Below are positions 9,883 to 49,142 of a stretch of 64,000 bases of DNA, piece by piece. The notes beneath the pieces were generated by a model. That model had not been told where the DNA came from. It saw only the letters and a program-made list of their open reading frames with translations, and did no database searches. The stretch comes from Psammoneis japonica. Lineage: Eukaryota. Each line of letters starts with the position of its first letter. Within the stretch, counting starts at the first letter, position 1. A program made the position numbers and the translations under genes. The stretch spans positions 1 through 64,000 of the forward strand of contig QPGO01000303.1 of NCBI GenBank assembly GCA_008632985.1, read 5' to 3'.

Positions 9883-10119
9883 GTGAATGTAACAGGGTCT
9901 CATGCAACATGCAACTCACCATTTCGGGTCCATGTGCCCAATCTTCCAAGTGGAGTCTGGTGGGAATGAAGATTGCCGCAAGCAAATTTGAAGTCACATC
10001 AGGGACGTGAATGTAACAGGGTCTCATGCAACATGCAACTCACCATTTCGGGTCCATGTGCCCAATCTCCCAAGTGGAGTCTGGTGGGAATGAAGATTGC
10101 AGCAAGCAAATTTGAAGTC
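9883..10119 (+). repeat. Tandem direct duplication, period 124 bp, spanning the host/decayed-DNA junction
   Basis: GTGAATGTAACAGGGTCTCATGCAACATGC...AAATTTGAAGTC begins at both 9883 and 10007. Confidence 0.85.
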
Positions 10120-13100
10120 CCGGCTGCTGCAAGAAGGACTCAACTCATGCTGTTGCTGGGTGCAAGGCCTGGATCCCCATCCTGTGCTGGAAATCCCAAG
10201 AATGCAATGGGTGATGGTGCAGTTCTCACCAGCTCCCGTGGCTTTGCCATGTGTGAACCTGACACTTGGGCGCAGCACCCAAGGAAGCTCCAGGAAAGGT
10301 GTTTGGAATTCATTGAGACAGAAACGACAGATGGCAAAGATGGAGAAGCGTTTGTTGCAGAAGAGTTCTGCAACCAACTGTTGAAGGATGACACAGTGTT
10401 TGCCAACATGCCCCCTCAAGATTGTTGAGAAGTGTTTGAATGCAATGGAGCAAAAGCTGTCAAGGCGTGCACGGATTTTCTTGAGGAGAAAGATGCAGAC
10501 AAGGCACAATGGCCTGATTTCCAGGCAGCTCAATGCAACAAAATCTTTGCACCATGGGACAAAAAGAAATCAAGGCAAAGAAGTTCAGGGCCGTTGCTTT
10601 GATGTGGTGTTTCCACATCTTAAACATGATTTGTTCAGTCGGTTGCCAGGCAAATGCATCAAGTGGGGCACGACATTTGACTTGGCAAAAAAAGACTGTG
10701 GATGACCCCAATTCAGAGGAAGACATCACGGCCTCAGCTGTTTGTTTTTTGGAGTGCATGGGCATGCAATTAAGTGGGCTTTTGCAAATTGGAGAATGAT
10801 GATGTGCGCCAGAAGCTTGGCCCCTTTCTCTGAAAACATTGTGGGTGGCTTGGGCAAACACATGTGGATGGAGTGGAATTTGCACACTCTGACACCTGCT
10901 GTGGTGGTTGCAAGGACAGCAAAGTCCAACATGAATGGGCAAAAAAATGCACACGAGTTGACACATGGTCCGGATCATGAGCTTCACAGGGCCTTCACTG
11001 CTGTGTTTGCATCCAAGAGTCTTGAGTTTGACACAGCCAGCAGCAACCACACACCCTTGAGCTCTTCAAAAAAGAACCCAAGGAGGTTTTGCACTCAAGA
11101 GAAATGGGAGTGCCAGTCATGCAGAAAAAGCAGAGGTGCAAGGACAAGACATTGAACTGCACACCAGACGAAGACACAACAGTGAGGGAAATTGAAGAGT
11201 GCTGCAATGACGTTGAGAAGGCAGAGGAAAAACTCAGAGATGAAAAAACATTCAAAGGAAACAGACACTTGAAATGCACTCTAAAGCCGGTGAAAGGGAA
11301 GCAAGGGGGGACAAAGGCAGAGGCTGATGACATGCTTCAGCACACTCAAAAAGGTTGCCATGAAGATCCACTTCCACACCAGACCAAATGAGCTTCAGGT
11401 GGGATCCCGACAATGAGCATTCAGACTTGGCAAGAATTTGTTCTGCACCACAGGGGGAGAGGTGTTCAACAAACAGGTGAGCCATCTTGTTTCGGACATC
11501 AGTCAATTGTTTTCTGGCGTTGCCAACAAAAAGCTGTGGCTTCGAGTGACAAGGTTCAACCTTGACAAGGACAAGCATTTGCTGGGCAACCAAACATTGC
11601 CTTTGGTTTCTTTTTGTCTGGTGGTGCAAAGATTTCATTGCACTGAGCTGCTTGGAAATCATGCCATTGTGCCTTGTCTGCATCTTTCTCTTCAATGAAA
11701 TCCACGTGCACCTTGACAGCTTTTGTTCTGTTGCATTCAAACACTTCTCGAAAGTCATGGGCCAGGTCAGCAAACACTGTCATCCTTCAACAGTTGGCTG
11801 CAGACTTCTTTTGTGACAAACACTTCCCCATCTTTGCCATCTGCCATTTTTGTCTCAATGAATTCCAAGCACCTTGGCCAGAGCTTCCTTGGATGCTGTT
11901 CCCAAGAGTCAGGCTCACGTGTGGCAAAGCCATGGGAGCCAGCAAGATCTGTGCCATCACCTGCTGCCTTTTTGGGATTTCCAGCACATTGACATTGCGG
12001 CAGGTTCCAGTGGCAGACAAGATGGAGATCCGGGTCTTGTGTCTGGCAACAGCATGAGTTGAATTCTTCTCATTGCCGGTTCTGTCATCATGCCAGACAC
12101 TCTTGTTGCTGCCACACCATGGACAGGGTGTCTTGATGCCCACAAGTTTGTGGCCATTTTTGTCAACATGCTCACAATGGATGTGTTTCATCCTCAACAA
12201 GAATGTCTCTGTCAAAAATGTCAGGAAATGCACAAAGCAAATGAGTCCCTGATGGGACTTCAAATTTTCTTGTGGCCTTCTTCATTCTTCCCACCAGACT
12301 CCACTTGGAAGATTGGGCATGTGGAGCCAAAATGGCCAGTTGTGCAAGACCCATCTGCTTGTGCTTCTCAGCTTGCACCTCTGGTTTTGCAACATGATGA
12401 GTGAAACCCTGGAGAAAGAACATGTGGATGTGCTTTTCCAGAGTTGTCCCATCACGCAGCTGCTTGCTTTTGGCGAATTAAATGAGCAATGCAATCATCA
12501 TCCAAAGAAGGAAACCAGTCAGACCTGTGCATTCAACAAATGCATCGGTCAGTTTCTGAAGGAGAATCTGTCTCATCAGGAGGTTTGGCCATGGTGAAAT
12601 GATGGGTGCATCAATGGTGCTGCCGCAATGCTCAACGCCCATTGTGTGCATGTTCACATTGTTGCTGCACCATCTTTGCAAAAACTGGCGTGCCTTTCAG
12701 CTTGTCAAAGATGCCGTGTCACTGTGTTGGAGATCATTGTGATTTTGTTGAATCTGTGCAGGACAATGCTGGGTTTTCTGCACTGGAAATTTTTCTGTTG
12801 ACGAGACTTTTCTGCTGAGGCTGCAACAAATTGCGCATGTTAAATGCAACAAAAAAGCACGCACATCAGACAGGTGCAAAATTTGTGCAGGCTCAATCCT
12901 TTTCTGCATCTGATCCAGCACAGGTCCTGGCATGTTTTTTGTGCTTCTGAATTGAATTTTTCTGTGCTCAACGACCCTTCAACCACTGGACTTGAGCAAA
13001 TCTCCATGGGTGGTTTGCTTGCTTGCTGCATCACAAAAAAAACGTTAAACACAACATTGTTTTGGAGCGCGCACCCACTGAAAGCTCGGGGGGGGGGGGC

Positions 13101-15240
13101 ATTTTTGCAACCTCTTTCACTCTTTCTGTTGCATCACTCAAGACAACGGTCAAGTGCTGCACCGACAATTTGGAAAAATGGCACATTGTGCAGAAGATGC
13201 AATGAGTCATTGATGACCAGGGTTTGCATGAAAGCAACAAATCACAGGAGCAAAATGCAGCTGCTGATGGAGAGAATCTTTGAGCATCAAAGCCAAGCTG
13301 ACTTTGCAGAAGCAAAAAGCCATCAAATTTGCTGCATGTGGATCCCCACCTTTCTGTCATCATTGAGCATCACAGGTGATGGAATGGGCCACCAGGTGAA
13401 TTTTGCCACCCTTGTTGAAATGACAAGATTCCACAATCATGCAATTGCCCAAGGCTCTGAGACAATTGTTGTCAAAAGGCTGGGAATCCAAAAGCAGACA
13501 TGAGCCAAAATGAAATTGTTGAAAAGCACGTTGTGCTTCTATTCCAACAACCAGCTCCAAACCAAAAAGAAAGAAAGGCTGTCATGTGCTGCCTTTGAGG
13601 CATTTGCACAACAAGCTGATGGATGGCAAGGTGATTTGACTTTCTGATTTTTTTTGCACTGGAAACTTCGTGCTGGCCACATGCATCATTGCTGAAAATT
13701 GGCGACATGATGGTGGTGTGTTGTTGCAACGATGGCGATGACAGCAACGTGTCCCAGAGTTTTTTGTCATTGCAGACATTTGGTTTGTTGAGTTTGAGAA
13801 TGCACTCAGTCATGAAAGTCCCCGAGAGCAACCTCTGTTTGAAAGCAAAACGTCGCACCAATGCCGAGCTCTGTTTTTCGATCTGTCACTGTTGTGCATT
13901 CATTGTTGAATGACTGAGACTTCGTCAGGGGGACTTTCTTTGCATGTTCATGTTTTGAACAGTGCAGTCAATCATTGTGACAAGTGCCCATTGCAAAGTT
14001 GTCCTGCAAGAGCTTGAGAAAAAATGCCATCGTCATCATCGGCATTGACGGCAATTTGTCGTGCAAATTGCAAGAAATGCACACGACTGTTGTCTGTCCA
14101 ACATTGCGCTGCTGTGCACTTGTTGTGCACATGCCTTAAAGAGCTCAGTGTGAGAGCACCCTGCAGGGAATGATTCAGTTGGTCTGGCATCCCTTGGAAT
14201 TGACACACATGCTGTTGAAACCTTGGGCAGGAATGTGAAGGAGTGGCTTGCCCATCAATCCAGAACAATCCCGAGTCTCAGCACAGCACTCAGGCTGGCA
14301 AATGTCATTTCCAGGCCTTCCAAATCTAGGTGCAACAAAGAGGAGCATTGCATCAACTTGAAAGACTTCAATTTCACTCCTCTGTCCAACACCATTGACA
14401 CATTGAAAGACAAGGCAAAACAAGGGGCAAGAGTTGACACCACAAGAGTGAAAGAGAAGCCAAAGGAGCGATGAGTCACAAAACAAAGGACAAGAAGCAC
14501 ACCGCCATTGCATCATGTGACAACCACAGGTGCATGTTGCCAGCTTGACAATTTGCCTCATGCTCTGTCACCCATTGCTCATGCACATGTTTTCACAAGC
14601 AAATGCTGCACATTCGAGCACAAGCCAAAAAAAAGGCAAAATGAAAGAAACACAGACAACATCAACCACATGTTTTGCAGCACACATGGCACTTGTCAAG
14701 ACTGGGCCAATGTGCACACATGACATGGACAAACAAGATGAATCTCAGGCACAACTCGCCCCATGGAAAGATGCTGCAACGCGATGGCACAAACAATGCC
14801 GCAATGCAGCACCGTGGTGTCTGCGACAAAAATGTGCAGAGGCTGGTGCAAAAATTGGTTTGCAAGTCATTCTCCACTTTTTGATTTTTGTTAACTGAAA
14901 AATTCAACGATCCGTGGGAGGTCTTTCCCTTCCTCTTCTTCCTGCTTTAATTTTGCAGACCTCCTGAGCTGGGAGTGGCAAATGGTGCTTTCATGATGAT
15001 GATGCAGCGGCATTGTCTTCAGTGCGTTCCTGCAGCCATGCCACAGCATGTGCTTCTTGATGTGACAACATGTGTTGGAAACTTTGGAAGAGAGCTGCCT
15101 CATTGGTGGCATCTCCAATGGTGTTGTTTTCAACATGATTTTATGCACAATGGCAGCGCAGATGGCAGAGCACCGCATCAGATTTCTCACCTCGGGTGCC
15201 TGGCGACGGACGGACAGTGCTGCCATTTTTTCCGAAACTC
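9897..15240. other. Heavily decayed, TpA- and CpG-depleted block (probable old transposon DNA)
   Basis: Only about 13 TA dinucleotides seen in 5.3 kb, and the sequence is TG/CA-rich with many Cys/His-rich spurious ORFs. The left edge is where similarity to the 3' flank of P4H copy 2 (23040-23198) ends. Confidence 0.75.
9918..12335. repeat. Diverged inverted duplication (about 9918-10580 versus 11596-12335)
   Basis: 10381-10580 matches the reverse complement of 11596-11790, and 9918-10005 matches the reverse complement of 12245-12335. Similar pseudo-ORFs occur on opposite strands (EKCLNAxEQKLSR...RKMQTRHNG). Confidence 0.8.
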
Positions 15241-15294
15241 CATATAAACAGGCCATGACGATGTTCACCGGGCGGCAGCATTGGCATTTCGCAT

Positions 15295-15551
15295 TGTGAG
15301 CTAATGGTTTAATTAGAACTAAGTTGACAAGTGGCCTTGTGATGAACACAGATGAACTAATTGTGATTACTTTGAATTTCGAAAAGGTGAGAAGACGAAC
15401 GTCTCAACAAGTGTTTTCCGATAAGTGTTTGAGATGTCTTCAACAATTTGGGGGCCGTACGTGTAAACAATTTGGGGCCATAGAAATCGAATATTGATAA
15501 TCGGATGTCGTAGATGTCGCGAGGCATAAATAATAGACGTCAATAGTCACA
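15295..15551 (-). repeat. 3' LTR of copia element (257 bp)
   Basis: Matches 21218-21471 with 4 substitutions and one 3-bp indel. Confidence 0.95.
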
Positions 15552-15573
15552 CTCCCTCATTCGATGAGATGGG

Positions 15574-18500
15574 TCACCAGCCGAAAAGCAAACGACGGAG
15601 CTTATAGAAAACCGCCTTAGGTAGCTGTTTCGTGAAGATGTCGGCTTGTTGATCGGCAGTACGAATAGGTTGAACTTTGATACGGCCGTTGGCGACTTCG
15701 TCGCGAAAGTGGTGAAGTATGACGTTGAAGTGTCGAGTGCGTGGGCGCATTTTGGGTACGCGAGCGATCTCCAGTGCGGCGGAGTTATCCTCGAACATCG
15801 TGCAATGCATGACAGGTGTCGTTTTCACATTAATGTTTCTCTCCTTGAGTTCTTCCAACAGGCACATGATAGATTTCACATGTCTGGCAGCTGTAGAGAG
15901 AGCAATGTATTCAGATTCTGCACTGCTGAGAGCAAACATTGTTTGCAGCTTGGAAGCCCAATGTAGGGGCACGTTTGCAAATTTGACAGCAAAACCAGAG
16001 CGAGAGCGAGCTGTATCAGGATGGTTTGCTGCGATAGCCTTGTCCCAGTTGCCACAAAAATCAGCATCAACATAGCAATCAAGGCCATATATGTCGTCTG
16101 GTTTGATGATGTATCCTTCATTTCGGGTGGCCAGTAGATATCTTCCAATGTGTTTGATGGCAGCGCCGTGAGAAGCTTTGGGATTCGACGTGAAGCGGGC
16201 GCATTGGTGAGTAGCATATGCAATGTCACCTCTTGTTGATTTTTCTAAGAAGTTCAGTTTGCCAATGACAGAGCGGTAGTTCCATGATTCCTGAAAAGGT
16301 GCACCATCCGGATCGGGTCCGATAAGTTTTGTAGTGCTTGCTGGGAGCTCGTGTGTTTTGGTATTGTTTGAATTCGAGTTGTTGCGAGTGCCAATAAGAC
16401 CAAGGTCTTGGAGAATACTGTCAATAAGTTGTGGTTGGTATAGTTTGAAAGAGCCGTCCGGTAACGTTTCGATTTTGACGCCGAGGTAGTCACCAATGTC
16501 GCCTTCATCGGATATACGTGTACGTGTACCGAGGTCCTTGATACATTGATCAATCTTAGCATCCGAAGGATCGAATATAAGACCGTCGTCAGTATAAACT
16601 AGGAATATGGTCGTTCCACGGTAGAAAACACATTCGTCGAATGAAGACTGTGTAAAACCAATGTCGAGTAGTACGTTGCGTAAGAATATAAACCACGTTC
16701 GTCCAGCGTCTTTTCCTCCATATATATTTTTCAATACTTCCAAACAATGCTTGTTACGATCCAAATTAGGAAAGTTGATGCCTCTTGGTAGTTCCATAAA
16801 GGTGGGCCTTGGAATGTCAGCGTGTGGATATGCCAATACAAAGTCAACTTGTCTTGATTTCCATTTGAAGAGGATGGAGAGAATAAGGAATAGACGGATG
16901 ATAGTCCAAGAAAGTGTTGGAGCATAGGTTTCCTCGTAATGTTTTCCTTTCTTCATTTTGTGTCCTCCCAAGTTGAGTCGACTTTTCCACTTGTATACTT
17001 TGCGTGTGCCGATACGTCGCTTGCGCTTCATAGACCATATTGCAGGAAGAATAGTCTCACCCTGTGGTACATCAGCCTTTTCAATAACTCGCCAATGTTT
17101 CCTATCGGTATGGTCTTGGACTTCTTTAACCATAGCTTTCTTGAATTCGTGAGCGTCTGGTTCGCGAAGAGCCTCGTGCATGTAGAGAGTGTCCGGGTCA
17201 TTGGAAGCTTTCATGCTGTACAAAATGGGGTCTTCTAGTTGATTTCGGTCGTCGTCGATGAGATACATGTCCTGGGCAATAGCTTCATAAGTGGTTGCAG
17301 CGTATGAGACAATATTTTGTTCACGTTGAAGTTGTGACTCAATGGCCCTTTGGGTCATTTGGACTTTACGACCAGAGCGAGTTGTGACCGTTGGTGTTGG
17401 CGATCCTGAGTCGGCTGCAGAAGTTTCAGAAGTCTCGTTTGTTGTTGATGGACCTCCCTCATTTGTTGGAGTAGCGGTTTCTGTTTGATCCGAGTGGCTT
17501 AGAGATGATCCTGTATCATTTGTATTGTCCATGTCAGTTGGTGGTAAGTCCGACACATCTGGAGTAGGAGCTGTAGTCATCTTACGTCTTGACTTGTCAG
17601 TTGTTTTTGCAGAGAATCTGACGCGTGCTTGTTTCTTGTAATGACACTTTTCTTGCCATGCACTTCGAGGGATGACGGATGAGCCTTTGACAGTCTCAAA
17701 TAGGTCGTCAAATTTGACATGGCATTGTGGAGAGGTAAGTCCTGTTTCAAGATTAAGGACAAGTGCTACAGATCTGGCGTGTCTGGGTGAAGGTCCGAGA
17801 TAAATGCCCACTCGTGCTCTTGTTTCCCACTTTGGTAGATGAGAGCCTGACTGCAACTTGTTCTTTAACACATGTGCAGGACATCCAAAAGAGTGGAAGT
17901 GTCGTAGTTTTGGTTTGACTTGCACGTTTGCGAAGAGCTCTATTGGAGATTCGTTTCCAGGAGATCTGGCGGTGTGATTGTGCACGTTGTTGGCATAGCG
18001 TATAGCATGTGGCCACAAGTGGTGATCAACAGCGTTTGGCCAGCGATGGTGAGCGTGTATAAGTTGTGTTCTCGCTTGCTCTTGTAGGTCTCTAATGCGT
18101 TTTTCTGCTCTGCCGTTTTGAAAGTGTGCATTGACTCCGCAATGGGTTACATGCTGCCCTTGTTGACGCACCGATTTGATGAATGCGTTGTCAGCGAATC
18201 GTCCATTGTCGGCGTGATGGTGTTGGACACGGACTCCGAGGGAGCGGGCAAATGCTTCATAAGCAACTTTGGCGTGTAGCGTTTCTTCTGAGGTGATCGA
18301 TTTTTGTAAGTGCACGAATGACAGGTCGCTACAGTGGTCGACGAAGACCGTGACGTAGCGATGTCGTTGACGTGTTGGTGTGCCCTTGAGTTGAGCTATT
18401 AGTCCAGGCGTGGTGGCGTCGAGTTGGTCGACAGACACTACTTGGCCGGCTTCAGTGGCTTTGAAAATTTTGGTTTGTTGTGTGCCCTTGGTTCGCCATG

Positions 18501-21156: not shown

Positions 21157-21217
21157 CTTGTTGGTTCGGAGAGAACGTTGCTGGTTCGATTAAGAACACT
21201 TTGTCGCAGAGGAAGCG

Positions 21218-21471
21218 TGTGAGCTAATAGTTTAATTAGAACTAAGTTGACAAGTAGCCTTGTGATGAACACAGATGAACTAATTGTGATTGCTTTGAAT
21301 TTCGAAAAGGTGAGAAGACGAACGTCTCAATAAGTGTTTTCCGATAAGTGTTTGAGATGTCTTCAACAATTTGGGGGCCGTACGTGTAAACAATTTGGGG
21401 CCATAGAAATCGAATATTGATAATCGGATGTCGTAGATGTCGCGAGGCATAAATAGACGTCAATAGTCACA
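21218..21471 (-). repeat. 5' LTR of copia element (254 bp)
   Basis: TGTGAGCTAAT...GTCACA followed by TSD CGCAT. Confidence 0.95.
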
Positions 21472-36543: not shown

Positions 36544-36564
36544 CGTCTCAATTGGGGAAGCGAG

Positions 36565-39298: not shown

Positions 39299-42200
39299 TG
39301 AGTCTCCGCTCAGAGACCGTTGCAGGAGCCGAAAGACGTGCAAGTCGGTACAATCGGGCTGCTGTCATCATTCTTGTGAGCCTTGTGGCTCGAAAGCAAA
39401 CTACATCGCGCGCGAACGCGCGGAACTAAAGCACACAAAACTGTGCGCGGCAAACTAAACAGCGCGCGACATTTCGCGCGCACCCAAATCCTGTTCAAAT
39501 CCTGTCACTCCCCAGTTTGCTTGAGGAGCCACAGAAACAGATTCGACTTTGGATGGAATGAAGTTCCAGAACATGAGGGGGCGGAGAAGGTCCCAGATTT
39601 GGGAGTGACCCCAATGCTTGCTGAGAATGTCAGCAGGGTTGCGGGAGCCTTCGATGAAGTGGAACTCAAGGTGGCCAGAGGCAATTGCCTCACGCACACG
39701 GTGGAACGACAGTGCGGTGTGTCGCTTGTGTAACTTGGAGTGCGGGATGGTGGCACTGTCTACAACTGACTTGTTGTCACCAAACATGTGACTGACATTG
39801 CAGATCGGGACGCCAAGGTGGCGCAGGGTGATGCGCAGGTCAACAATCTGCTCGACACAAGTCCTTGCGGCAACAAATTCAGACCCGCAGGTTGCAGTCT
39901 CCATGGTGGCTTGCTTCTTAGAGAACCAATCAGCCGGGAATTTGTTGAGGAAGTGGAGCATTCCCATGACAGAGCGTCCGGTGAGCATGCAATGGTGCAA
40001 GTTTGCATCGACGTAATGGGTGGCAGTGACGAACTTGCCAAGGGGCGGTGGAGCGTCCTTCGGGATCATCTCTTCTGCTTCGCCGCACACGGAATGCATC
40101 CATTCACAGGCCGGAGCAGGGAGATCCGAGTGGTCGGGCTCTTCCGTGCGAACGCGGAGAGCGCCGTGTCGCATCTTGGAGAGGTGCCCACAGACGCGTT
40201 TGGCACGATCCAAGTGGCCTTGACGGGGCACAGCTCGGAAGCTAGAGAGTGACATGACGGCCGTGGCAATGTCAATTCGACCAAGGGACACTGCCCATTG
40301 GAGTGAACCAACAAGAGACTGGAACTTGTGAATGCCATCGGGCCCCAGCAGTTTGGAAGTGTCTGGTTCGGGGTGGTCACCCTTCTCCAGAGGTGACAGG
40401 GCGTTGGTGGCAGGTTTCTCCCCAAACAGTCGGGCACAGCTGTCGACCATGCGCTCGATGTACTTGCGCGGAGACAGGCGTGAGGTTCCGTTGGGATCCC
40501 GGGAAAAATCGCAACCCAGATGGAACTCAATGGGTCCCGCACCCTTGAGCTTGAACTTGCACTTTTCCGTGAGAGTGTCGACGAAAGATTGAGGGTCCTT
40601 CACAGCAATGGCAAGGTCATCCACACAAACGGCAATGTGTTCACAGTGGTCGCCGTTCCTGCGCATCCAAATGTCGGGTTCGGCGCGGCAGGGGAAGAAT
40701 CCTTCAGCTCACAGGCAGTCGGCGAAGCGCTCGTGCCAGCGGAGACCAGAGCTGCGCAGTCCACACAGGGCCTTGTGGATGACAAGGATGTGTCCTTCGA
40801 GTTTGCCAAATTCGGGTCCGGCTGCAATGTAGAGCTTCTCCTTGGTGGTGGCTTCAAGGCAGGCATTGCCAATGTCGGTGGCCCATGTCTCCAACTCGTT
40901 GAGTTCGGCCAGGAAAATCATCAGCCGAAGGCCACGGAGGGAGACTGCTCCGGAGTGGACACTGTCGACAGGTGCGTCCGTGAGGTGCCCATCGGCTGCG
41001 AGTCGTGCCTTGTGGTGACCGTCGTGTTTCACGTCGTGCACTGGGTGCACTCAGATCTTCTTGTGTCCTGCAGGAGGAGTGGAAGACTCGAAGGGCCCGC
41101 AGTCATGGAAGACTTTGCATTCCTCGAGTTGGTCCATCTCGAGATTAGTTGCGTCTCCCCATTTGCAGTTGCCATTGCGTTCGTCTAGTGACATGGCGTG
41201 TTTGCAGTTCCGGGGAACTTCGCATCCGCACTTGCAGCGAGGTGCAGTGTGGAAGGAGCAAAGCTTGGCTTGGTTGGCCATGCGAAATGGCTTCTTTTGG
41301 CGCCTCGCGATGGTGCGGAACCGCTTCCAGCCATCAGTGTCGAGAAGTCTGTTCTCTCGTGCATAGATGGTGCAGGTGACGGGGTCATCCTTGGCGATGA
41401 TGGCAAGAGGCTCGGACGTGATCTCCCCACTTTCCCATTCAAGCATGATGTTGTAGCTTGAGCCTTTCCAGGTTGGGTCATGAGGCTTCAGAGGTCCTTC
41501 GTGTGACACGATGCATCGAAATTTCCAAACAGCAGTGTCTTCGTCTTCTTGCTCAATGTGATTCATGATGTCGTTGCAGGCAAGGACTTCCTCACATTCG
41601 TCATTGTTGACAGAGCAGACAAACTCAGTGAGCTCGGGATTGCCGTTCACTTTCCATTCGTGTTCTTCGACGGCCTTGACGATGCGAGCTCTGTGGCATT
41701 GTCCATCCTCTTGTGGCTGCATGAGGAAGGTGCGTCCAATGATGTCTTGCGGATCGAAAACTGGCATCTTGGGTGTCCTGATCTCCCCACCAGGAGAATC
41801 GACGGGGTTGTCGTCATGGCGAGATTCGATGATGGGTTCAGGTGGCTCCCCATCAGGAGGATCAAGACGCAGGTTTCGAACGGCAGGATCGGTGGTGGCG
41901 GAGCGTACGTTGGACCGGTGGAGGATCTTCTGAGTCTCGTCAGAGAGAATCTTGAAGGTCATCTGGTGGCCGACGTGCTCAGCAATGCCAACAAAGCGTC
42001 CACGCAACTCACAGGATTCGGACGGCCAATCGGAGTCATCGAGGTGGAAGTGCACGGGTTCCCACCAGTGAAAGCGAAGCAATGGGCTGATGTCCGGGGT
42101 GGAGCCAGTGAGAGTCTCGAGGGGCGTGCACCAGTGGAGACGTGGGGACGCTGCATGGTTGAGTGTGAAGCACACATGCATGAGCGCCAGCAGCCATGTG

Positions 42201-43075
42201 TGGGCGGGCGAACCAAAACGATCCATGACAGTGTTTGCCATGCACTTCACGGTCTGGTGTCGACGCTCGGCAAAGTTTTGGTGTTGCTGGTGAGGCTCAC
42301 TTTGCCAGCTGGAGATGAAGAGGGCTCGTAGGATCCCGAGCACCTTGTTGCTGATCTCAACTTGAGCACGGTCACCAATGAGTTTGGATGGGGCACCACG
42401 CTCCCGGATCTGATCCTCGAGTGTGTTGACAAACTCTTTGTCCGTCTTGGTGCCGTGGACGTCAGTGACGGTAGACTCGGTGCCAACAAACAGTTGGGCG
42501 CTGGTGCAACCAGAGTCGACGGCCGGGGTGTTGGCACAAACGGTGTCAGTGGCAACAGGCTCGTTGCGGCGGTGCACATTAAGGGTGGGGTTGGGTGATT
42601 TGCAGGCCTTCCTAAGGTGTGTGCCGGTGGGCATGCGGACGTGCTGCGTGGTGCAGTCAAAAGTACGACGGACCGCATCGGCAGGGAGGAAGCCAAAGTG
42701 GGGCCGAAGAGACTCGAAGGGGGGGTCCTTGGGCTGCACAGTGCGCTCCGGGGGCGGAATGTCGTCGTCCTTGGGGTCAATCGCGTGTAGATGACACTCG
42801 TAGAACACGTCATAGTTCGGAATGAGGTGATCATCGATGGCAGACGCTTGATCGGCAGACAAGGAAGCGGACATGATGGTCTCGTTGACAACGACACGAT
42901 GACGGCAGTTGCCGCATTCGTCAAATGGGTTGGCAGTGGGATCGTCCTGCAGGTCAGAGATCGCGTCGCACCACTGGTCATTGTCAGTGACAGTGATCAA
43001 GGATCCCATGTGTCATCACCGGTGAGGATGACATGGGGCAGGGTGTCCCATTCAGCGTCAGTGCAAGGTTGAAGT
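39299..43075 (-). mobile_element. 5'-truncated second Ty1/copia (CoDi) element: integrase-RT-RNaseH plus probable 3' LTR (about 39299-39507)
   Basis: One frame 43009-39455 with two TGA stops. Motifs ATDT, DRAQVE, QNFAER, HKARL, DIGNA, CVDD, YVDAN, GSEF, GDN and ADILSK; PPT GGGGAG precedes TGACAGG at 39507. The left LTR edge is uncertain. Confidence 0.9.
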
Positions 43076-46000
43076 GCCCCTTGTCATCCATTGGGCACCC
43101 AAGACAATCAAAAGAAGGAATGCATCATTCTGAGATTCGGCTGAGTGGTGCAGCAAAGCGATCGGTCATGCAAATGCAGGCAGAGCACCAGCGTGGGCGG
43201 AGCAGGAGTTCTCACTGTGCAACAGAAATGCAGCAGCACAACAGCCCCATTTTAGAATTTCGCTTGATTCCGCAACGCATTCCGCATCACAAGAGCTCCA
43301 GAGATGACACGCCACATTCCGACCACAACACGGAAAGTGAAGCTGTTGCATTCCGTGCCATTGGTTGAGCAAAAGGAATCCACAAACAGAGTGCAGCAAA
43401 AGGAGCAGCAAATGGAATCTAAAACAAATGGCCTCTGTTTGACAAACGAAATGGTGAAACGGAATGTGCAAATTGCGTCTTGGGTGCGGAATGAGCACAT
43501 GCGTTGGAATGTGATGCGGACTTTGACGAGGCTTTTTTCATTTTGCACCGTGTTGTTCACATTCTGTTTTGAGGCCTTTTGCGACGGAGTCATGCACACA
43601 TTCCGTGCGATTCTGTGGATTCTTGTTTCCTGTGGTGTGTCGCAAAAGATTCTCATGCGCAGGAATTCCAAAATGTGATTCTTCTGCACGAGGGACACTG
43701 TCAGTTGCGATTGACATCATGACACAGGGCTTTCATGCTCTGTCTCAACCTCTGGCATCTGTCACTTTTGTCTCAGTTTGGTGCTTGCAGAGGGACAGAC
43801 CAGTGCCATCTTCCTGTGCTGCAGGCACCGAGGATGGAACGTGGGGCTGCGTTCCCCACATGCAAAGATGGCGGGCTGCCCTCAGCTGCTGTCATGACAC
43901 TCATTCTTGCATCATCAAAGCTGTGCATTTCTGAGTGTGGTTTTCTCCATTTGTCTGCAGCAGGCCATGCTGCTGCCGTGCTTGCTGCTGCCTTTCTTCT
44001 GGCTTCTTTGTTGCCAGGCAGTGCATCCACAGCACACACAGCGCCACAAAAGGAGCGAAACGACATCGTTGCTCAAGACAAGGCTTGAAACGCTCACACT
44101 TTTTTGTGGTCCAGCAGGACCTGCTCTGGCACACATGCTGCTTGAAAGTTTGCCACAGCATCTGTCACTTCTCTCTCCCACATTGGCGCTGACCAAGATG
44201 TCTTTGCAGCCACCATCTCTCGACTTGCCAGAGTCTGCATTGACACTCAGCAAACCGCTGGATTGACCAGGACTTTTTGAGATGTGACACAGGTTGATGG
44301 CAGGTTTGTCATGTGTGCTGAGGAAGGCTGGGCAGTCTTGCCAATGGTCTGCCAAGCTCACTCATCACACAAATCTCATCATGACAAGAAATGGCCAGCC
44401 CACCCTTCTTGCACTGAAGAGCATGTTGAGTGAAAAACTTGCATCAGGTGTGCACTCCAGTGGAGACATGTCACAGTTTCTTCTGCAATCTGACATTTGA
44501 CATCTTGTTTCTGGGAGCCATGTGCACCTGACATTGCCCGGCCTGTCAGCTCCTGGGTGGAGGTCCAGCCACCCCACATGTGAGCACCAATGCAGGAACT
44601 GGTGCAGGCTGTGCATCATTTCTGGGACCAATCATGCCAAGTTCCCAGCCCCCCCCCCCAGCCCTGGCATTGTTGTGAGAAACTCATGTGTTGGGTGGCT
44701 TGGGTCACTGGAATGCTGGAAAATGAGTGAGCAGGTGGGTGGAGGCAAGGGGCAAGAGAAAAACACAACAACAGAGGCCAGAATGCATGGAGATGAGGTG
44801 GATGACAAAGAAAGCAGCAGCAACAGAGAGCCTGCTGCAAATGTGCAAAGATTTGCTGAAATGTCAATGAGATGCAAACAGCGGCAAAGGATGCTGCAAA
44901 ATGTCTTCATTGCAAGTCTTTTGTGAGACTCTCCAAGTCATGAAGGAAACTTTGGATGCTGCTGACTGTGCAGCAGCTGCAGCTTCAAAGCTCTTCTCAT
45001 TCAAAGATTTTGGCTTGTCATCAGTGTTTCCAGAGAGCCGCTGATGGTCACTTGTGTGTGGCTTTAACGTGATCCCCTTGGCAGCCAAGGCACCATTTCA
45101 TGCCTCTTCTGTGGATCCCCATGCACCAGGAGTGGCCAGGACTGGAGGTTCAAGAGCCACCAATGCCTCTGGCAACTGAGCTGTGTGACTTGCCAATGCA
45201 GTTTTGACACAGATCAGAAGGAATGAGAATGTGAAGAGATGTCTAGAGAGAAGCCAGCCAAGAGAGCTGCAAGCTCAACTCTTGATTTTTCTTTGGGTGG
45301 GTGATTGTGCAGAGCTGCCCTTGATGTCAGCAGGCCCAAGTCAGCGCCCTTTCTTCTGCTGGGGCAACAGCAAACAGAAAGTCAGAGCAAGTGGCAGCAG
45401 CAAATTGGTTGGTTCTTGGGGGCTCTCAAATCACCATTTGTCTTTCTCCCAAGTGTCTGGCAGTCTTGGGGCAGGGAAGAGTGTTTCTTCCCCGGACACT
45501 GGCAAAGTTCAACTTTTCAATGTGCCAGTCAACACATCTCCAAATTCTTGGAGATGAGTGTGCACAATGTCAGGAGATCAACTGGAGCTCATTTGACCAG
45601 ATGTGCCAACCCATGTGCATTGGGTGTGAGATGGACTTGTGAGCAAGTGGCTGTCCATCACATGCAAGCTGCGCACTGCTGTGCACTGCACACAAACCAG
45701 ACATGCAGCATGCGCGGCTTTAAGCTGTGCTGTGTGCTTGCTGTGAAAGCAGCACAAATGGCACATCACCTGAAGAAAATTGCTCAGATGGCACAGCATG
45801 TGAACCTTCCATTGCAGCAAAGGGGCTGCTGGATGCTGTGATCAACTGTGTGGAGGAGCCCAAGGTTGGGGTGTTGTGGACAAAGTCAGGGAGCAGCACT
45901 GTGGCACAACTCTTGGCCATCACCACCCATGATGTTGCTTCCTCACACAACAAGGCCACAGCCAGCCCTGCTTGAGTTTGTTGCTCTCAGGTGACTCATC

Positions 46001-49000
46001 TTTTTGCTTCTAAAGTTGGTTGGACAATTGGCAGGCCAGCGCTGCTGTGGTTTTGCCAGCCCACTTCCCCCAGCAACAAACATGCCAGGTGAATGGATGG
46101 CCCCCTTCATTGCCCAGCTCTTCATCTTGTGCACATTTGTTGCTCCAATGAAGCAAGGTGGACAAGCCTGCAACAACGCCATTTCCCAGCACCACACAGA
46201 CAAACCTGGCACCACACAGACAAACCTTTTGCATTGCAAGGAGCAGGTTGGGAGTGTTTTCTGATGTGATTCTCACAGAGAGCTCCATGGCCCGACCTGC
46301 TTGTGGTGTGTCTTGGGGGGCAGTGTTGGGCAGTTTGCATGGCTTGTGACTGGACCAATCACTGGCAATTTGCAGCTTGGCATCTGCAAGCAAGAAGGAA
46401 AAACACAGGGGGGCAGGATGCTCACTCTGTGACTTGCAGCAGAGTTGCTTTCAACCATGTGTGCACTTCTTGTGCCTTGCACATGGTTTCCACTCATCAC
46501 CAATGTGGCACCCAGTGCTGACAAGACACACATGAGATGAGCCAATTTCAAGAGAGCCCAACTTGCCATCAAGGCAATCAGGCCATTGTTGCCAGGCAAG
46601 GTGGCTGCTAAAAATTCAACCCCCCCCTGCTTTTCTTCTTTTCCCAGAAGGGCTGCAATTCCACAAGTCCTGAAAGTTGAGCCACTTGCCAATGTTGATT
46701 TGCAAATGCATTGTGGAGTCTTTCATCAGAGCATGGGTGCAACATGCATGCTTCCTGGTGCCCACCCATGGAGGCAAGCTCATCTTCAAATGAGGCACAG
46801 AGCAAACCCAAGCTGTGGCCATTCAAAGATTGGGCAGCTCCCAAGTGGCAGCAGATTTTGCATTTCTTCTTGCCCAATCCCAAACCATTGCATTGAGAGA
46901 TGAAACTTGAAGGTGCAGCAACTCAAGCACAAAAGCAAGAGCCCAGAATTTCCTCACATGCTCAAGGCTGAAGTCACCAATGTGCTCATGTGCTGATGAG
47001 GCAGTTGGCAAAAAATGCACCCCTCCATGTGTGGGGCCGCACCTGCTGGCACCAGCACATGCATTTGTCAACACAAGGCTTGCATGCTTCCACAACAGTC
47101 TTGAAGTGAAGCTCATCATCAAGTCATTGGCAATGCACCCCACTTCAGGTTCAAGAAACAACCAAGCTGGCTGGCCAGTGCCTGAGAGCATGGCTGCCAA
47201 TGACACTGTGAGTTTCCAAGAGACAAGCCTGCAGACAATTTGTTGTTCAAGACAGTGCCCATGAAAGGGAAGGTGCAACCCTGCCCAGGTGCACCAAACT
47301 GCTTCACAGCTGCAATGAAGGTTCTTTTGCCAGAGCAGGGGTTGAAAAAAGAGCCAGAAACATCTTCAAAGGAAGCCAAGCGCCCCCCAGTTTACAAACA
47401 CCAAGTCTCCAGCGACAATGTGCTTGAGCATGTTTCACCACCACAATGCTTTTGGTTGGCAACAAACAAGCCACGACCATTGCAGACAAAAAAGAGAGCT
47501 TTGGGAGTGGGCGCCTCTCCACAAGGCAAAAAGCCTTGACCAACTTTTCTTGGCAGGCACACAGTGTGCATTTCCTTGGCTGTGTGCTTCTTCTGGCTTG
47601 ACTCATTTGTGTCCTGAATGATCATCTCACAAAACACAACCATGCAGGTGTTCCTTCAATGAATTAACTGCAAATGTTTTTGAACAGCGCTGCTCCCCCA
47701 CAGTCTTTTGTTTGCTTTGACTGTGCATGATTTGAAATGCTCTTGTTCAAGGGCTTTGTGGTCATCTGTTGTTTTCTTGACAACGGGCTCAGAGAAACAT
47801 CCCTTGCTGAAAAAAAAGCCTCCATGTCAGCCATTTGAGCTGCAATGCAGAGCATGTCTTTGGTGTTCAGCACATCATGTTGGGGCTCACACCACCAGCA
47901 TTGAATGCCTGGGAAATGCCTCGCTTTTCTGTGGTGTGAGTCAGCACATTTTTGAGGCCAATGGCAGCATCCTGTCTTGAGTGTGCAACATTGAGAGGGT
48001 TTTGTTTGCCCAGTCTGCAAAACAACAAAAATTGACCACCTGATGTCTGCCTTTGCAGCCCTCATGATTGTTCGCACTGGCCATGATTGTTTGTGGCCAT
48101 TGAACCCACCACAAATTGTTGGGGCTGGCCATGGCACAACAGCATCAAATTGCCAGAGCACTGCACCCATGTCACTTGATTTTTTGTTGAGCGCTGCACC
48201 CGTCACTTGATTTTTTGTTCTCAAACACCACGCAAACCTCCCTTGAGCTGGCAAACAACTCACCCAAGCTTTGTGCTGCAGACTCTCTCTCACAAACACA
48301 TTTTGCCAAGCAACTCAAGCATGGCAGGTGCTGCCACCTCTGCTCCTCAACCAAAACATCATTTGCACGTGCACATTGCCATTTGTCTTGACGGCAGTCT
48401 TGTGCTCATGAGATGCTCCTGCTTCTGGGTGAACGAGACTGTGTGGGCACAATTGGCAAAAGAAGAAAATCTTTTTGACTCAAAGCAGGGGGGGTGTTGT
48501 GCAGCATGAACTTGCTCTTTTGACAGCCTCACACCAGCCAAAGAGCAGAATTTGGAAAAGACAGACTTTCTGTCAGTGTCTCTTGGCGTCTCCGCCAAGT
48601 CAATGATGACAAGCATTGACCTTGATGACGTCTCTGCATTGCAATTTGCAAGAAGTCTTGTTGCAACAGCATCTGCAGAGTCTCTTTCCACACATTTGCC
48701 AGGTGTGGAGACCAGTGTTGTGAGCAGCTCCAGCAGCAAGAAAAGAGCCGTGAGAACAACCATCTGGCTTGCGCAAATCTGACGTTTTGCTTTGACCAAG
48801 TTGGCTGTCATTGTGTTTCATGATCACTTCTTTGGAAAGACCAGCGCAGCTGCACATGACACATGGAGAGAGAGTGCTCCTCAGAGAGCTCAGCAACAAA
48901 GAGGAAAGAAGCGCAGGCTTGAACCCGGCACAGTTGCTTTGCTTTGAGCCACAAAGGAGGGGGGAAAGTTCCCCAGAAAGGAAGTGAACCAAATCAATGC

Positions 49001-49142
49001 TTTGACATGGTCACCCATTTCCCACCATTGTTTCCATTGCTTTACAAAATTAACAAAATTGTTGGCAACAAACCAACACTGTGTGGTGTCTTGTGGTGGT
49101 CTCAAGGTGAGAGTAAAACAAGCTGTGCTCGGTGCTCGACAG
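43076..49142. other. Extremely decayed TpA- and CpG-depleted block running into the assembly gap
   Basis: Roughly a dozen TA in 6 kb, few CG, and no recognisable protein motifs. Confidence 0.75.

Follow-up and report, generated by a model that had tools for sequence, protein, structure and literature searches.

Which process could strip a single dinucleotide from mobile DNA of a diatom, while adjoining genes keep a normal composition, is the question raised by this locus. The window (the whole stretch of DNA analysed, a single one of 64 kb) was scanned in 1-kb bins for dinucleotide observed/expected ratios (o/e). TpA o/e was 0.00–0.06 and TG/CA o/e 1.6–1.96 in the bins 10001–15000, 29001–30000, 37001–38000 and 43001–49000, as compared to a TpA o/e of 0.41–0.83 in bins of host DNA. 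Pooling of the four strong blocks (13,624 bp; Table 1) yielded 27 TpA (o/e TA 0.03, CG 0.30, TG=CA 1.79), contrasting pooled host DNA (33,743 bp) with o/e values of 0.57 for TA, 0.95 for CG and 1.18 for TG=CA. The longest TA-free run, located in the last block, extends over 1645 bp (P ~1e-28 given the host TA density), and the block edges towards host DNA are sharp, being resolved to ~150 bp. The depletion in the window is a real observation. Adjoining host genes are normal in TpA and also in Tyr content (2.4–6.0 % in five host ORFs vs 0–1.55 % in ORFs of affected elements), just as claimed in the preliminary description.

Table 1. Positions and properties of the features discussed (o/e, observed/expected ratio)
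Feature	Position	Strand	Properties
Host tandem duplicate A, ShK / 2OG-oxygenase gene	8178..9896	+	Internal control; partner at 21472-23198
Strongly TpA-erased block 1	9897..15294		TA o/e 0.00-0.11, CG 0.13-0.57; sharp left edge at 9897
Copia-1, intact Ty1/copia LTR retrotransposon	15295..21471	-	Pfam RVT_2, gag_pre-integrs, SH3_retrovirus
TpA-poor patch inside Copia-1, upstream gag-like ORF	20100..21100	-	TA o/e 0.07-0.22, CpG 0.7-1.0
Strongly TpA-erased block 2, ~1.1 kb	28996..30064		TA o/e 0.00-0.06; edges sharp within ~150 bp
Gypsy-type LTR retrotransposon, partly hypermutated	31953..36855	+	Pfam RVT_1, RNase H, integrase
Strongly TpA-erased stretch, Gypsy-to-Copia-2 interval	36856..38945		TA o/e 0.00-0.12
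Copia-2, degenerate Ty1/copia element, heavily hypermutated; very high-copy family	38946..43418	-	RVT_2
Copia-2 ORF, RT/RNase H	39455-40708	-	
Copia-2 ORF, integrase-side	41051-43012	-	
Strongly TpA- and CpG-erased block	43419..49142		TA o/e 0.00-0.05, CG 0.05-0.27; single-copy depth

The same description had attributed TpA loss to every transposon-derived block, which goes too far, since the four strong blocks, Gypsy and Copia-2 are depleted, but Copia-1 has a mostly near-normal TpA content; likewise, the range then given (9897..49142) encloses the depleted blocks, but also spans unaffected host genes (21472–28995 and 30200–31950). Demonstrable transposons among the affected units number two, whereas the four most erased blocks carry no recognisable transposon gene, with sharp edges next to normal host genes. 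None of the 123 ORFs of ≥70 aa from the erased blocks produced a credible Pfam hit, tblastn with LTR-retrotransposon proteins yielded no match in the most depleted blocks, and no atlas match was obtained for the last one; a transposon origin of these four blocks is assumed. Block 1 contains internal inverted repeats (~9883–10578 and 11597–12342) and is located between two host tandem duplicates, while a segment of very high repetitiveness (~37029–37667; summed word depth 58,156 vs ~55–180 in host bins) is found in the stretch that separates Gypsy from Copia-2. The last block ends at a 175-N scaffold gap (49143–49317) and has a word depth of 50–312 in run X1, near that of host bins. In case of Copia-2, summed word depth amounts to 27,900–222,000 over its bins.

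The timing of the changes can be read from the LTR pairs of Copia-1 (15295–15551 and 21218–21471; target-site duplication CGCAT) and Gypsy (31953–32243 and 36565–36855; CGTCT), both of which have intact 5-bp target-site duplications. The Gypsy LTRs differ by 13 TA-versus-TG/CA exchanges, one CG-versus-CA exchange and one transversion, and all four substitutions between the Copia-1 LTRs are of the TA-versus-TG/CA type; the 17 of 19 substitutions reported beforehand were reproduced identically by an independent recount. Divergence between LTRs affects 17 of 78 TA bases vs 1 of 416 other bases (~90-fold). In the host tandem duplicate (89.6 % identity across 1.7 kb), only 15 of 153 events are of this type (Fisher p 6e-13), the spectrum is ordinary (83 of the 153 events are transversions), and no TA-loss gradient was seen towards the junction. 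Both strands are affected alike: TG and CA outcomes number 14 and 15 at consensus-TA sites of Copia-2 (see below), 584:597 and 647:658 in two large blocks, and conserved Tyr residues of Copia-2 and Gypsy changed 13 times to Cys and 10 times to His. Since both LTR pairs retained their target-site duplications and both strands were hit equally, it was chromosomal DNA that mutated following insertion, which bears out the earlier claims on timing and strands.

Two elements with relatives, Copia-2 and Gypsy, reveal the direction of change. Copia-2 shares 60–67 % identity with 120 Copia proteins, but contains only 0.48 % Tyr vs 4.68 %. The 12 columns with Tyr in at least 80 % of these homologs are occupied in Copia-2 by Cys (5), His (4), Phe (1) and Tyr (2), i.e., Cys/His at 9 of 12, compared to an average of 2.2 % Cys/His in the homologs, and the reverse-transcriptase motif YVDD reads CVDD. 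Similarly, the 20 conserved Tyr columns of Gypsy (Tyr in at least 70 % of 60 homologs) contain Cys (8), His (6), Phe (1) and Tyr (5), i.e., Cys/His at 14 of 20 vs 1.7 % on average in the homologs. At the nucleotide level, 38 sites occupied by TA in ≥60 % of 13 normal relatives read CA (15), TG (14), TA (5) or otherwise (4) in Copia-2, whereas control relatives, treated by leave-one-out, retain TA at 30/40, 33/39 and 29/38 sites. Elsewhere in the genome, members of the Gypsy family have TA at positions that read CA or TG in the window (32457, 35494, 36365), with one reverse case at 35745, and TG-versus-CA doubles between copies occur at 35023-4 and 35757-8. Such doubles account for 11 of 55 differences between the inverted-repeat arms of block 1 vs 3 of 153 in the host duplicate. 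The Tyr columns, together with 29 of the 38 consensus-TA sites, identify TA as ancestral, and the change reflects mutation, not native composition; the changes are nearly all A:T>G:C transitions (17/19 in LTRs; 29 TG/CA vs 4 others at consensus-TA sites). For the most extreme blocks, the same polarity is extrapolated from these two elements.

The few surviving sites disclose a preference for flanking bases. Among the 27 TpA left in the strong blocks, 20 are YTAR (13 of these TTAA), seven are mixed and none is RTAY, the expected shares being 16 % for YTAR and 34 % for RTAY (p 4e-11 and 2e-5, respectively). RTAY also makes up only 5 of the 63 TpA remaining in the internal region of Gypsy (p 2e-6; TA o/e ~0.25, CpG 1.0–1.7). 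Thus, RTAY is lost first and TTAA last. This hierarchy corresponds to a symmetric RTAY word without strand choice, and would suit an enzyme reading duplex DNA. A rule by which the flank would dictate the mutated strand, another trace that a processive single-strand deaminase might leave, was tried and failed in Copia-2, where YTAY gave rise to nine TG and nine CA.

The strong blocks are also poor in CpG (o/e 0.05–0.6), methyl-CpG decay being present in the old blocks as a second, separable process. TpA loss is not due to this decay, as correctly stated beforehand, because CpG-poor Copia loci of other organisms keep normal TpA: three environmental loci (L012, L021, L025) combine a CpG o/e of 0.12–0.21 with a TpA o/e of 0.47–0.73. 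Moreover, 39 of 53 consensus CpG persist in Copia-2, which resembles the controls in this respect. The loss of TpA comes before the decay of CpG, a slower process that is expected from the cytosine methylation of diatom transposons.

These footprints most likely reflect a process in this diatom that would turn TpA into TpG or CpA, an A:T to G:C change limited to this dinucleotide. Its target would be chromosomal double-stranded DNA once insertion has taken place, the two strands being treated alike, and its action would be restricted to retrotransposons and adjoining non-genic DNA. In LTRs, it would proceed at a rate about two orders of magnitude above that of other substitutions and go near to completion, modulated by flanking bases such that purine-TA-pyrimidine goes first and TTAA last, and running ahead of the slower CpG decay. 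The resulting Tyr to Cys/His changes would wreck the element proteins, including the reverse-transcriptase YxDD motif; concomitant removal of TAA and TAG stops would keep frames open, the proteins nevertheless being dead. Polarity, post-insertional timing, symmetry between strands, restriction to one dinucleotide, the order of flanks and the sharp block limits are shown by the sequences themselves. We infer that the process serves as genome defence, and that chromatin state or small RNA, and not mere repetition, probably directs it to its targets.

With respect to chemistry, a polynucleotide adenine deaminase of the ADAT2/TadA kind is our favoured guess, to which we give somewhat less than an even chance. 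ADAT2/ADAT3 (Tad2/Tad3) convert A to I (read as G), including mRNA editing in Fusarium and Neurospora, with U immediately 5′ of the edited A in 100 % of tRNA A34 and in >70 % of fungal mRNA editing (PMC11156358). The TpA-only footprint, with T/U directly 5′ of the changed A, matches this −1 preference, which is a resemblance of signatures only. According to the accessible text of that article, ADAT substrates are RNA hairpin loops, A or G being favoured at +1, whereas here chromosomal DNA is affected, and sites with a 5′ purine and a 3′ pyrimidine go first. A Pfam scan of 44 ORFs from the window (at least 130 aa in host regions; at least 150 aa in 9000–50000) detected no deaminase domain. Some chemistry other than deamination, thymine oxidation or error-prone repair has a modest chance of being responsible.

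Best surviving among the specific alternatives, albeit unlikely, is a TET/JBP-type dioxygenase that would act on the thymine of TpA in silenced DNA, yielding 5-hydroxymethyl- or 5-formyluracil by oxidation; the oxidised base would then mispair with G or be misrepaired, producing T to C on either strand. 5-Formyluracil does mispair with G. A>G and T>C on the partner strand are indistinguishable in sequence, so that all of the above counts fit equally well, and the RTAY word without strand choice suits this duplex-reading enzyme, too. Dinoflagellates, which also belong to SAR, enrich 5hmU formed by a TET/JBP homolog on transposons, where it aids silencing (PMC11572971); this thymine-directed and repeat-aimed activity could in principle give T>C. 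However, the accessible text of that article reports silencing and neither mutation nor a TpA footprint, and the only 2OG-oxygenase genes of the window are prolyl-hydroxylase-like (PF13640 plus ShK domain).

Error-prone repair synthesis by a Pol-eta-like enzyme, writing G opposite T at TpA in heterochromatin, is improbable. Pol eta generates A>G at WA motifs, TA being hottest, but TA and AA both represent hotspots. Action on both strands would agree with such an activity, whereas ApA/TpT is not depleted (AA/TT o/e 1.25 in strong blocks vs 1.15 in host DNA), consensus AA and AT sites in the Copia-2 alignment behave as in control relatives, T before A is a near-absolute requirement, the consensus-TA changes are nearly all transitions, and erasure is near-complete. 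The remaining A-containing dinucleotides of the strong blocks resemble host DNA as well (o/e AT 0.87, AC/GT 0.87, AG/CT 1.00). Of the three candidate activities named in the preliminary description, this one provides the poorest fit.

Very improbable is A-to-I editing (ADAR- or ADAT-like) of element RNA or cDNA prior to integration of the edited copy. Retroelements do pass through RNA and single-stranded DNA, and ADAT-type editing has U at −1, but LTRs of single insertions with intact target-site duplications differ at 17 TpA, strands are hit equally, and blocks without retroelement genes are affected most; moreover, the B. natans mutations described below arise in chromosomal DNA of DNA-virus inserts. 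ADAR-type hyperediting (A>G, pre-integration, of the transcribed strand only) was rejected, both strands being equal and the LTR pairs different.

An artefact, i.e., base-calling or assembly errors at modified bases creating false TG/CA, has an even smaller chance. The run platform is not recorded, and the best-matching run (X1) is probably the source sample of the assembly, with contigs hiding rare variants; therefore, it does not represent independent confirmation of the bases. Nevertheless, the separately built X1 contigs reproduce the erased blocks: they contain 81 % of sampled words of 5000–14900 and cover 30 of 30 bins of 30000–49142, and the erased single-copy block has a host-like word depth. 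Errors at a palindromic TpA should furthermore result in mixed calls rather than clean TG/CA with intact frames, the N gap is typical of short-read scaffolding, and the signature recurs in unrelated metagenome assemblies and in the published Illumina mutation-accumulation data of B. natans. Least credible is native composition, in that elements would have evolved TpA avoidance (e.g., against a TA-cutting nuclease or TA-targeting transposons) as known for dinucleotides under selection in viruses and phages, since conserved catalytic Tyr is replaced (YVDD to CVDD), LTR pairs diverge almost only at TpA, and TA is retained by relatives as well as by further copies in the genome.

For Bigelowiella natans, a hypermutation that hits integrated DNA of NCLDVs and virophages specifically at TpA was described (Mettrop et al., bioRxiv 10.64898/2026.01.13.699255). 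According to the main text of this preprint, two viral inserts acquired 231 mutations in mutation-accumulation lines, of which 230 were A>G or T>C, all of them at TpA, the rate in viral inserts was ~1000x background, the process is limited to foreign DNA, and low-TpA predicted genes are enriched for reverse-transcriptase and DDE domains. Both cases have in common A:T>G:C change only, restriction to TpA, TpG and CpA outcomes, coupling of TpA loss to CpA+TpG gain, and sharp limits; by its footprint, the diatom process appears to be of the same kind. B. natans is a chlorarachniophyte (Rhizaria) with giant-virus inserts as targets, whereas the present host is a diatom (Stramenopila), in which LTR retrotransposons were identified as targets. 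Erasure has gone much further here (o/e 0.03 vs 0.45 in the B. natans NCLDV insert), and the main text of the preprint includes neither the flank hierarchy nor the order relative to CpG decay found here, while the process is proven de novo in B. natans and deduced from footprints in the diatom. The initial claim that no such system is known in diatoms agrees with full-text literature searches, which retrieved no diatom report of TpA hypermutation, but the same process does exist in B. natans.

Repeat-induced point mutation (RIP) of ascomycete fungi converts CpA to TpA, creates stop codons and is triggered by duplication. Shared features are point hypermutation that kills mobile DNA after insertion by dinucleotide-specific transitions on both strands within sharp limits. 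The polarity is opposite, as already noted in the preliminary description, with TA being ancestral here: RIP makes TpA and stop codons, whereas the process proposed for the diatom would destroy TpA and remove stops. As to a trigger by duplication, the 1.7-kb host duplicate is untouched here, and the block of single-copy depth, which may once have been repeated, is mutated most. APOBEC editing of vertebrate LTR retrotransposons, likewise a deaminase-type hypermutation fossilised in LTR elements, reportedly turns C into U while reverse transcription is under way, on a single strand, and leaves G>A footprints, in contrast to the post-insertional A:T>G:C changes of both strands seen here. DNMT4 of diatoms is a relative of RID, the enzyme of RIP (PMC9998398).

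One may speculate about an ancient, chromatin- or RNA-guided DNA-editing defence shared by diatoms and chlorarachniophytes and extending SAR-wide, in which an ADAT2/TadA-derived deaminase would act on silenced mobile or viral DNA; we regard this as possible but rather doubtful. Such an enzyme would read a duplex word centred on TpA (RTAY best, TTAA worst) at ~100–1000x background, until no Tyr codon and only one of the three stop codons is left. If true, this would be a so far unnoticed mirror image of fungal RIP, with products that resemble ORFs and occur in roughly 2 % of the sequences of this Copia clade in public data. Independent of this, TpA erasure may be an overlooked way to disable invading DNA. 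The present findings would extend a mutational signature of genome defence, known since 2026 from one chlorarachniophyte, to retrotransposons and to diatoms, an ecologically dominant group, and its occurrence in a second lineage would speak for a widespread system instead of a mere curiosity. The near-saturated footprint occurs in graded stages (Copia-1, Gypsy, Copia-2, unidentifiable blocks), and any candidate enzyme must reproduce the flank hierarchy and the order of TpA before CpG. A natural enzyme capable of A:T>G:C change in double-stranded chromosomal DNA would be of interest for base editing. Since TAA and TAG stops disappear, long spurious ORFs crowd both strands of erased DNA (52 ORFs of ≥150 aa overlap with 9000–50000), and homology-based masking of repeats misses the mutated elements; in genomes of this type, the numbers of genes and the repeat content may therefore be incorrect.

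Several minor observations concern individual elements. Copia-1 is young and largely spared: its pol and both LTRs have near-normal TpA (o/e 0.45–0.82), and the TA classes of pol are host-like. Its TpA-poor patch lies in the gag-like ORF, which contains one Tyr in 477 aa, and five of the eight TpA in bin 20001–21000 are YTAR and none is RTAY (p 0.004). Confinement to a patch of ~1 kb within an otherwise spared element is an odd pattern under the proposed process. All 13 TA events of the Gypsy LTR pair reside in the 3′ LTR (7 TpA vs 21 in the 5′ LTR); full sparing of the 5′ LTR was counted against the process. Clustering of TG versus CA by strand, a trace that a processive single-strand deaminase might leave, was absent in every block (runs-test z −0.97 to 2.09, host-like).

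Beyond this diatom, the signature is rare among relatives, with one strong and one partial case among 80 loci. A metagenome locus (L016) has a TA o/e of 0.02 and three TpA left, none of them RTAY. Five Tyr-erased Copia proteins (P0157, P0176, P0387, P0399, P0417) share at most 64 % mutual identity.

TpA is depleted in this window to an extreme and highly significant extent. The four strongly affected (erased) blocks, pooled over 13,624 bp, retain 27 TpA (observed/expected ratio, o/e, 0.03), against an o/e of 0.57 in host DNA (33,743 bp). TpG and CpA are raised symmetrically (o/e 1.79 vs. 1.18 in host DNA) and CpG stands at 0.30 (host 0.95), while ApA/TpT, ApT and the remaining steps resemble host DNA. 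Runs free of TA extend up to 1645 bp (chance about 10⁻²⁸ at host TA density), and the boundaries of erased DNA are sharp, within about 150 bp (9897, ~15200, 28996 and 30064–30200). The substitutions between paired LTRs agree exactly on recount with the preliminary description: 17 of 19 are TA versus TG/CA, comprising 13 in Gypsy (besides one CG-versus-CA difference and one transversion) and all four in Copia-1. A host tandem duplication (8178–9896 vs. 21472–23198, 89.6 % identical) served as internal control; here, 15 of 153 events are TA versus TG/CA and 83 are transversions (Fisher p 6 × 10⁻¹³ vs. 17/19). LTR divergence affects 17 of 78 TA bases versus 1 of 416 other bases, an approximately 90-fold difference.

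Features of the window, with structure and degree of substitution
Feature	Position	Strand	Structure or remarks	Substitutional state
Copia-1	15295–21471	minus	LTRs 15295–15551, 21218–21471; target-site duplication CGCAT	LTRs 98 % alike; 4 events
Gypsy	31953–36855	plus	LTRs 31953–32243, 36565–36855; target-site duplication CGTCT	LTRs 95 % alike; 13/21 LTR TpA and 14/20 conserved Tyr lost; CpG still 1.0–1.7
Copia-2	about 38946–43418	minus	degenerate	TpA o/e ~0.1; CpG 0.6–0.9
Erased blocks without recognisable gene (unidentifiable)	9897–15294 (block 1), 28996–30064 (block 2), 36856–38945, 43419–49142			TpA 0.03; CpG 0.3
ShK-domain / 2OG-Fe(II) oxygenase (prolyl-hydroxylase-like) tandem paralogs	8178–9896, 21472–23198, 23408–24847			
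Host duplication, 1.29-kb spacing	5595–7522		83 %	
257-bp tandem duplication	27119–27632		88–91 % identity	
(GCT)n microsatellite	31886–31937		beside Gypsy 5' LTR	
LON N-terminal domain gene	49117–50721		host gene	
Polynucleotide kinase 3'-phosphatase gene (PNK3P + AAA_33 kinase)	61188–62920		DNA repair	

TpA loss had initially been ascribed to every transposon-derived block. The loss itself stands, but not its generality, since Copia-1 is nearly untouched outside a 1-kb patch, nor the origin of the most strongly erased blocks, which cannot be shown to be transposons. Pfam searches of the 123 erased-block ORFs of at least 70 aa yielded noise only and no credible hit, the blocks were not matched by tblastn with 10 LTR-element proteins, and a protein atlas provided no usable hit for two of their ORFs (low recognition scores). 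LTRs of Copia-2 were found neither in normal nor in purine/pyrimidine space. Around block 2, TG...CA ends with a target-site duplication gave three candidates versus about one by chance and were not used. Immediately to the right of this block, DNA of normal TpA content carries a 31-codon remnant (30500–30592) that matches the Copia-1 pol C-terminus at 71 % identity. The insertion point of Gypsy (target-site duplication copies at 31948–31952 and 36856–36860) coincides with the exact junction of normal DNA (left) and erased DNA (right). In the otherwise young and intact Copia-1, the inner patch (20100–21100) has a TpA o/e of 0.07–0.22; it falls in an upstream gag-like ORF with 1 Tyr in 477 aa, the adjoining LTR and pol being normal. 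This patch may have been either targeted in place or inherited through recombination from a partly mutated progenitor.

Three independent tests (proteins, DNA and other genomic copies) support TA as the ancestral state. In the RT/RNase H frame of Copia-2 (39455–40708), Tyr amounts to 0.48 % versus 4.68 % over the aligned regions of 120 homologs; the 12 columns with Tyr in at least 80 % of these homologs are occupied by Cys (5), His (4), Phe (1) and Tyr (2), and the catalytic YVDD reads CVDD. The Gypsy pol frame (1163 open codons) contains Cys 8, His 6, Phe 1 and Tyr 5 at 20 columns with Tyr in at least 70 % of 60 homologs. The homologs' own Cys/His share at these Tyr columns is 2.2 % (Copia-2 set) and 1.7 % (Gypsy set). 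At the DNA level, 38 positions have TA in 60 % or more of the 13 normal Copia relatives compared; Copia-2 reads CA 15, TG 14, TA 5 and other 4 there, and leave-one-out controls retain TA at 30/40, 33/39 and 29/38. At consensus CpG sites, retention in Copia-2 (39/53) resembles that in the controls (46/57 and 47/59). Other Gypsy copies, on contigs of the public sequencing run X1, have TA versus CA/TG of the present copy at 32457, 36365 and 35494, the latter a His codon at a conserved Tyr; position 35745 shows the reverse direction, and 35023–4 and 35757–8 are TG-versus-CA doubles. These examples belong to the best-supported 40 of 1527 variable places and are illustrative rather than a count. Such doubles also make up 11 of 55 differences between the inverted-repeat arms of block 1; in the control host duplication the figure is 3 of 153.

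Each LTR pair of Copia-1 and Gypsy represents a single insertion with its 5-bp target-site duplication intact; the 17 TpA differences between these LTRs therefore arose in the chromosome, which bears out mutation after insertion as originally proposed. Both strands are affected equally: the Copia-2 consensus-TA sites divide into 14 TG and 15 CA, Tyr codons changed to Cys in 13 and to His in 10 cases, and the TG:CA tallies of the two large blocks are 584:597 and 647:658. Such equality argues against one-strand RNA/cDNA editing before integration. Strand-coordinated clusters are absent according to runs tests on TG/CA order (z −0.97 to 2.09 in affected blocks, i.e., within the host range). An apparent strand clustering in the Gypsy LTRs (13 events, 4 runs vs. 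~6.5 expected; p about 0.04, one-sided) was considered too weak.

A feature absent from the preliminary description is the effect of flanking bases (R, purine; Y, pyrimidine). The 27 TpA surviving in the strong blocks comprise 20 YTAR (TTAA 13, CTAA/TTAG 5, CTAG 2), 7 mixed and no RTAY sites; normal shares, from host DNA and 78 normal Copia loci, are 16 % YTAR and 30–34 % RTAY (binomial p 4 × 10⁻¹¹ for the YTAR excess, 2 × 10⁻⁵ for the RTAY deficit). With expectations taken from normal Copia composition, and hence approximate as belonging to another family, the strong blocks kept TTAA at 13 of 29 expected sites, CTAA at 5/53, CTAG at 2/26, GTAA at 4/73, ATAG at 2/79 and ATAA at 1/80; none were kept of ATAC (105 expected), ATAT (61), CTAC (98) and GTAC (62). 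RTAY accounts for 5 of the 63 TpA remaining in the Gypsy internal region (p 2 × 10⁻⁶) and 4 of 29 in Copia-2 (YTAR 11/29); the Copia-1 patch (bin 20001–21000) retains 8 TpA (YTAR 5, RTAY 0), and an erased metagenome locus (L016) retains only three (CTAT, TTAG and CTAG). The hierarchy is symmetric, with RTAY lost fastest and TTAA slowest. A strand rule, in which the mutated A precedes a pyrimidine (YTAY to TG, RTAR to CA), fits 5 of 5 asymmetric LTR sites, and pyrimidine-preceded Tyr codons of Gypsy show 6 TG and 3 CA; the rule was rejected on Copia-2, where YTAY gave 9 TG and 9 CA.

The series from Copia-1 via Gypsy and Copia-2 to the unidentifiable blocks (see table) indicates that TpA loss far outpaces CpG decay. 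Diatom transposons are CpG-methylated, CpG decay being the expected consequence (PMC9998398). As maintained earlier, CpG decay alone leaves TpA in place: environmental Copia loci with a CpG o/e of 0.12–0.21 still have TpA at 0.47–0.73. Loss also depends on position. In Gypsy, the 13 LTR events are confined to the 3' LTR, whose neighbour is an erased block; the 5' LTR, together with the initial few hundred bases following it, is unaffected. Copia-1 shows the same direction (3 to 1), so that 16 of 17 events fall in the LTR adjoining erased DNA (p 2.7 × 10⁻⁴), which in both elements is also the 3' LTR, rendering the two factors inseparable. The Gypsy 5' LTR, singled out as the only section of the element lacking any TpA loss, is situated at the start of an opposite-strand host ORF (30778–31971), and open promoter chromatin may possibly protect it. 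Spreading of TpA loss into host DNA was not apparent: in the duplicate copy bordering block 1, losses (11 vs. 4) do not cluster toward the junction.

Contigs of X1, which probably represents the assembly's source sample, contain 81 % of sampled words of 5000–14900 (half host, half erased) and span all 30 bins of 30000–49142. Word depth is 50–312 in the erased block 43419–49142, close to the 57–182 of host bins. Since X1 likely is the assembly's own sample and its platform is unrecorded, this rules out an assembler quirk, not base-calling error. Three observations speak against the latter as source of TG/CA: the calls are cleanly TG or CA and the frames intact, unrelated assemblies show the same signature, and the process has been proven with Illumina data in the alga Bigelowiella natans. 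Summed word depth, an indicator of repetition rather than copy number, is very high for Copia-2 (27,900–222,000) and moderate for Gypsy (~920–1970). Across 37029–37667 and 38946–43418 it amounts to ~28,000–222,000 versus ~55 in single-copy DNA, so that Copia-2 and the 37029–37667 fragment belong to extremely abundant families in this genome. Differences among copies in X1 comprise 1204 transitions versus 301 transversions.

In public data, the signature recurs in several Copia lineages, its frequency being a few per cent. Among the 120 closest Copia proteins, P0157 (0.24 % Tyr) and P0176 (0.91 %) are Tyr-erased and P0224 partly so, with Cys/His at 67–75 % (P0157, P0176) and 25 % (P0224) of conserved Tyr columns. 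Three more (P0387, P0399 and P0417; 0–0.5 % Tyr) were found among 150 cluster representatives. All Tyr-erased proteins are at most 64 % identical to one another and to the window; these five proteins thus represent at least five further Copia lineages, from public metagenome data, in which nearly all Tyr is replaced by Cys/His. From 514 confirmed matches, 80 metagenome loci were retained; L016 (1–2766; TpA o/e 0.02, product 97.6 % identical to P0157) is erased and L003 (0.33) partly so, the other 78 ranging from 0.47 to 1.06.

The inference of TpA-directed mutation of inserted DNA thus holds: the process is TpA-specific, acts on both strands after insertion, converts A:T to G:C, follows a flank hierarchy and has sharp limits. 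It had been taken for an undescribed system; the kind, however, has already been reported in B. natans (2026). In mutation accumulation lines of that alga, 231 of 302 nuclear mutations fell within two integrated viral regions, 230 of the 231 being A>G or T>C, each of these at TpA, at ~1000 times the background rate and in some lines only; reverse transcriptase and DDE domains were enriched among predicted genes low in TpA, and an ADAT2-like DNA adenine deaminase was proposed (bioRxiv 10.64898/2026.01.13.699255). TpA-specific A:T>G:C change is common to both organisms. The main text of the preprint does not mention diatoms, flanking context or CpG (bioRxiv 10.64898/2026.01.13.699255). A full-text literature search, with most subscription journals outside its scope, retrieved no report of the signature in diatoms or other stramenopiles; as far as found, this is the first sighting of the process in diatoms and on retrotransposons.

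The target would be silenced mobile or foreign DNA, which the process may disable; Tyr codons are destroyed. RIP makes stop codons, whereas the present process removes them, and erased DNA consequently abounds in long spurious ORFs that can mislead gene prediction. In 9897–15294 and 36856–49142, TAA and TAG are gone, TGA is the sole stop, and long ORFs overlap one another on both strands; the ORFs overlapping 9000–50000 that reach 150 aa or more number 52.

As to chemistry, adenine deamination by an ADAT2/TadA-type enzyme is tentatively favoured. The natural site of bacterial TadA is U-A-C. In the ADAT family, U lies directly 5' of the target A in 100 % of tRNA and >70 % of fungal mRNA editing (PMC11156358). 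Fungal ADAT editing favours A or G 3' of the edited A (PMC11156358), which, together with the absence of strand-coordinated clusters, points against such an enzyme. Thymine oxidation at TpA through an enzyme of TET/JBP type would suit a symmetric duplex word and has a precedent in the 5hmU marking of dinoflagellate transposons (PMC11572971), but is rather unlikely. Pol-eta-like synthesis is improbable, fitting poorly since ApA is untouched. The near-saturated footprint, the flank hierarchy and the order of events provide concrete tests for an enzyme. A Pfam scan of 44 window ORFs (at least 130 or 150 aa) detected no deaminase or TET/JBP gene.

The window (GC ~49 %; a single scaffold gap of 175 N at 49143–49317) otherwise encodes ordinary host genes according to Pfam, i.e., CK2 beta, AAA ATPase, three tandem ShK/2OG-oxygenase paralogs, flavodoxin-like reductase, ankyrin, adaptin, glycosyltransferase, PNK/phosphatase and aldo-keto reductase. 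Block 1 and Copia-1 separate the first two ShK/2OG-oxygenase paralogs, placing mobile DNA within a tandem gene array. The best database relatives of the LON N-terminal domain gene (42–68 % identity) derive from diatoms (including Odontella, Seminavis, Cyclotella and Thalassiosira) or marine assemblies, and the organism is accordingly a diatom, one lacking a close sequenced relative in the database searched. The PNK3P/AAA_33 gene is 12 kb away from the erased region, with no ground for tying it to the process. The stretch 25000–26900 (TpA o/e 0.24–0.45) was rejected as erased DNA, as it has no TG/CA excess and RTAY sites remain; its low TpA is ordinary coding bias. Ordinary substitution spectra are likewise found in the (GCT)n microsatellite, the 257-bp tandem duplication and the host duplication of 1.29-kb spacing.
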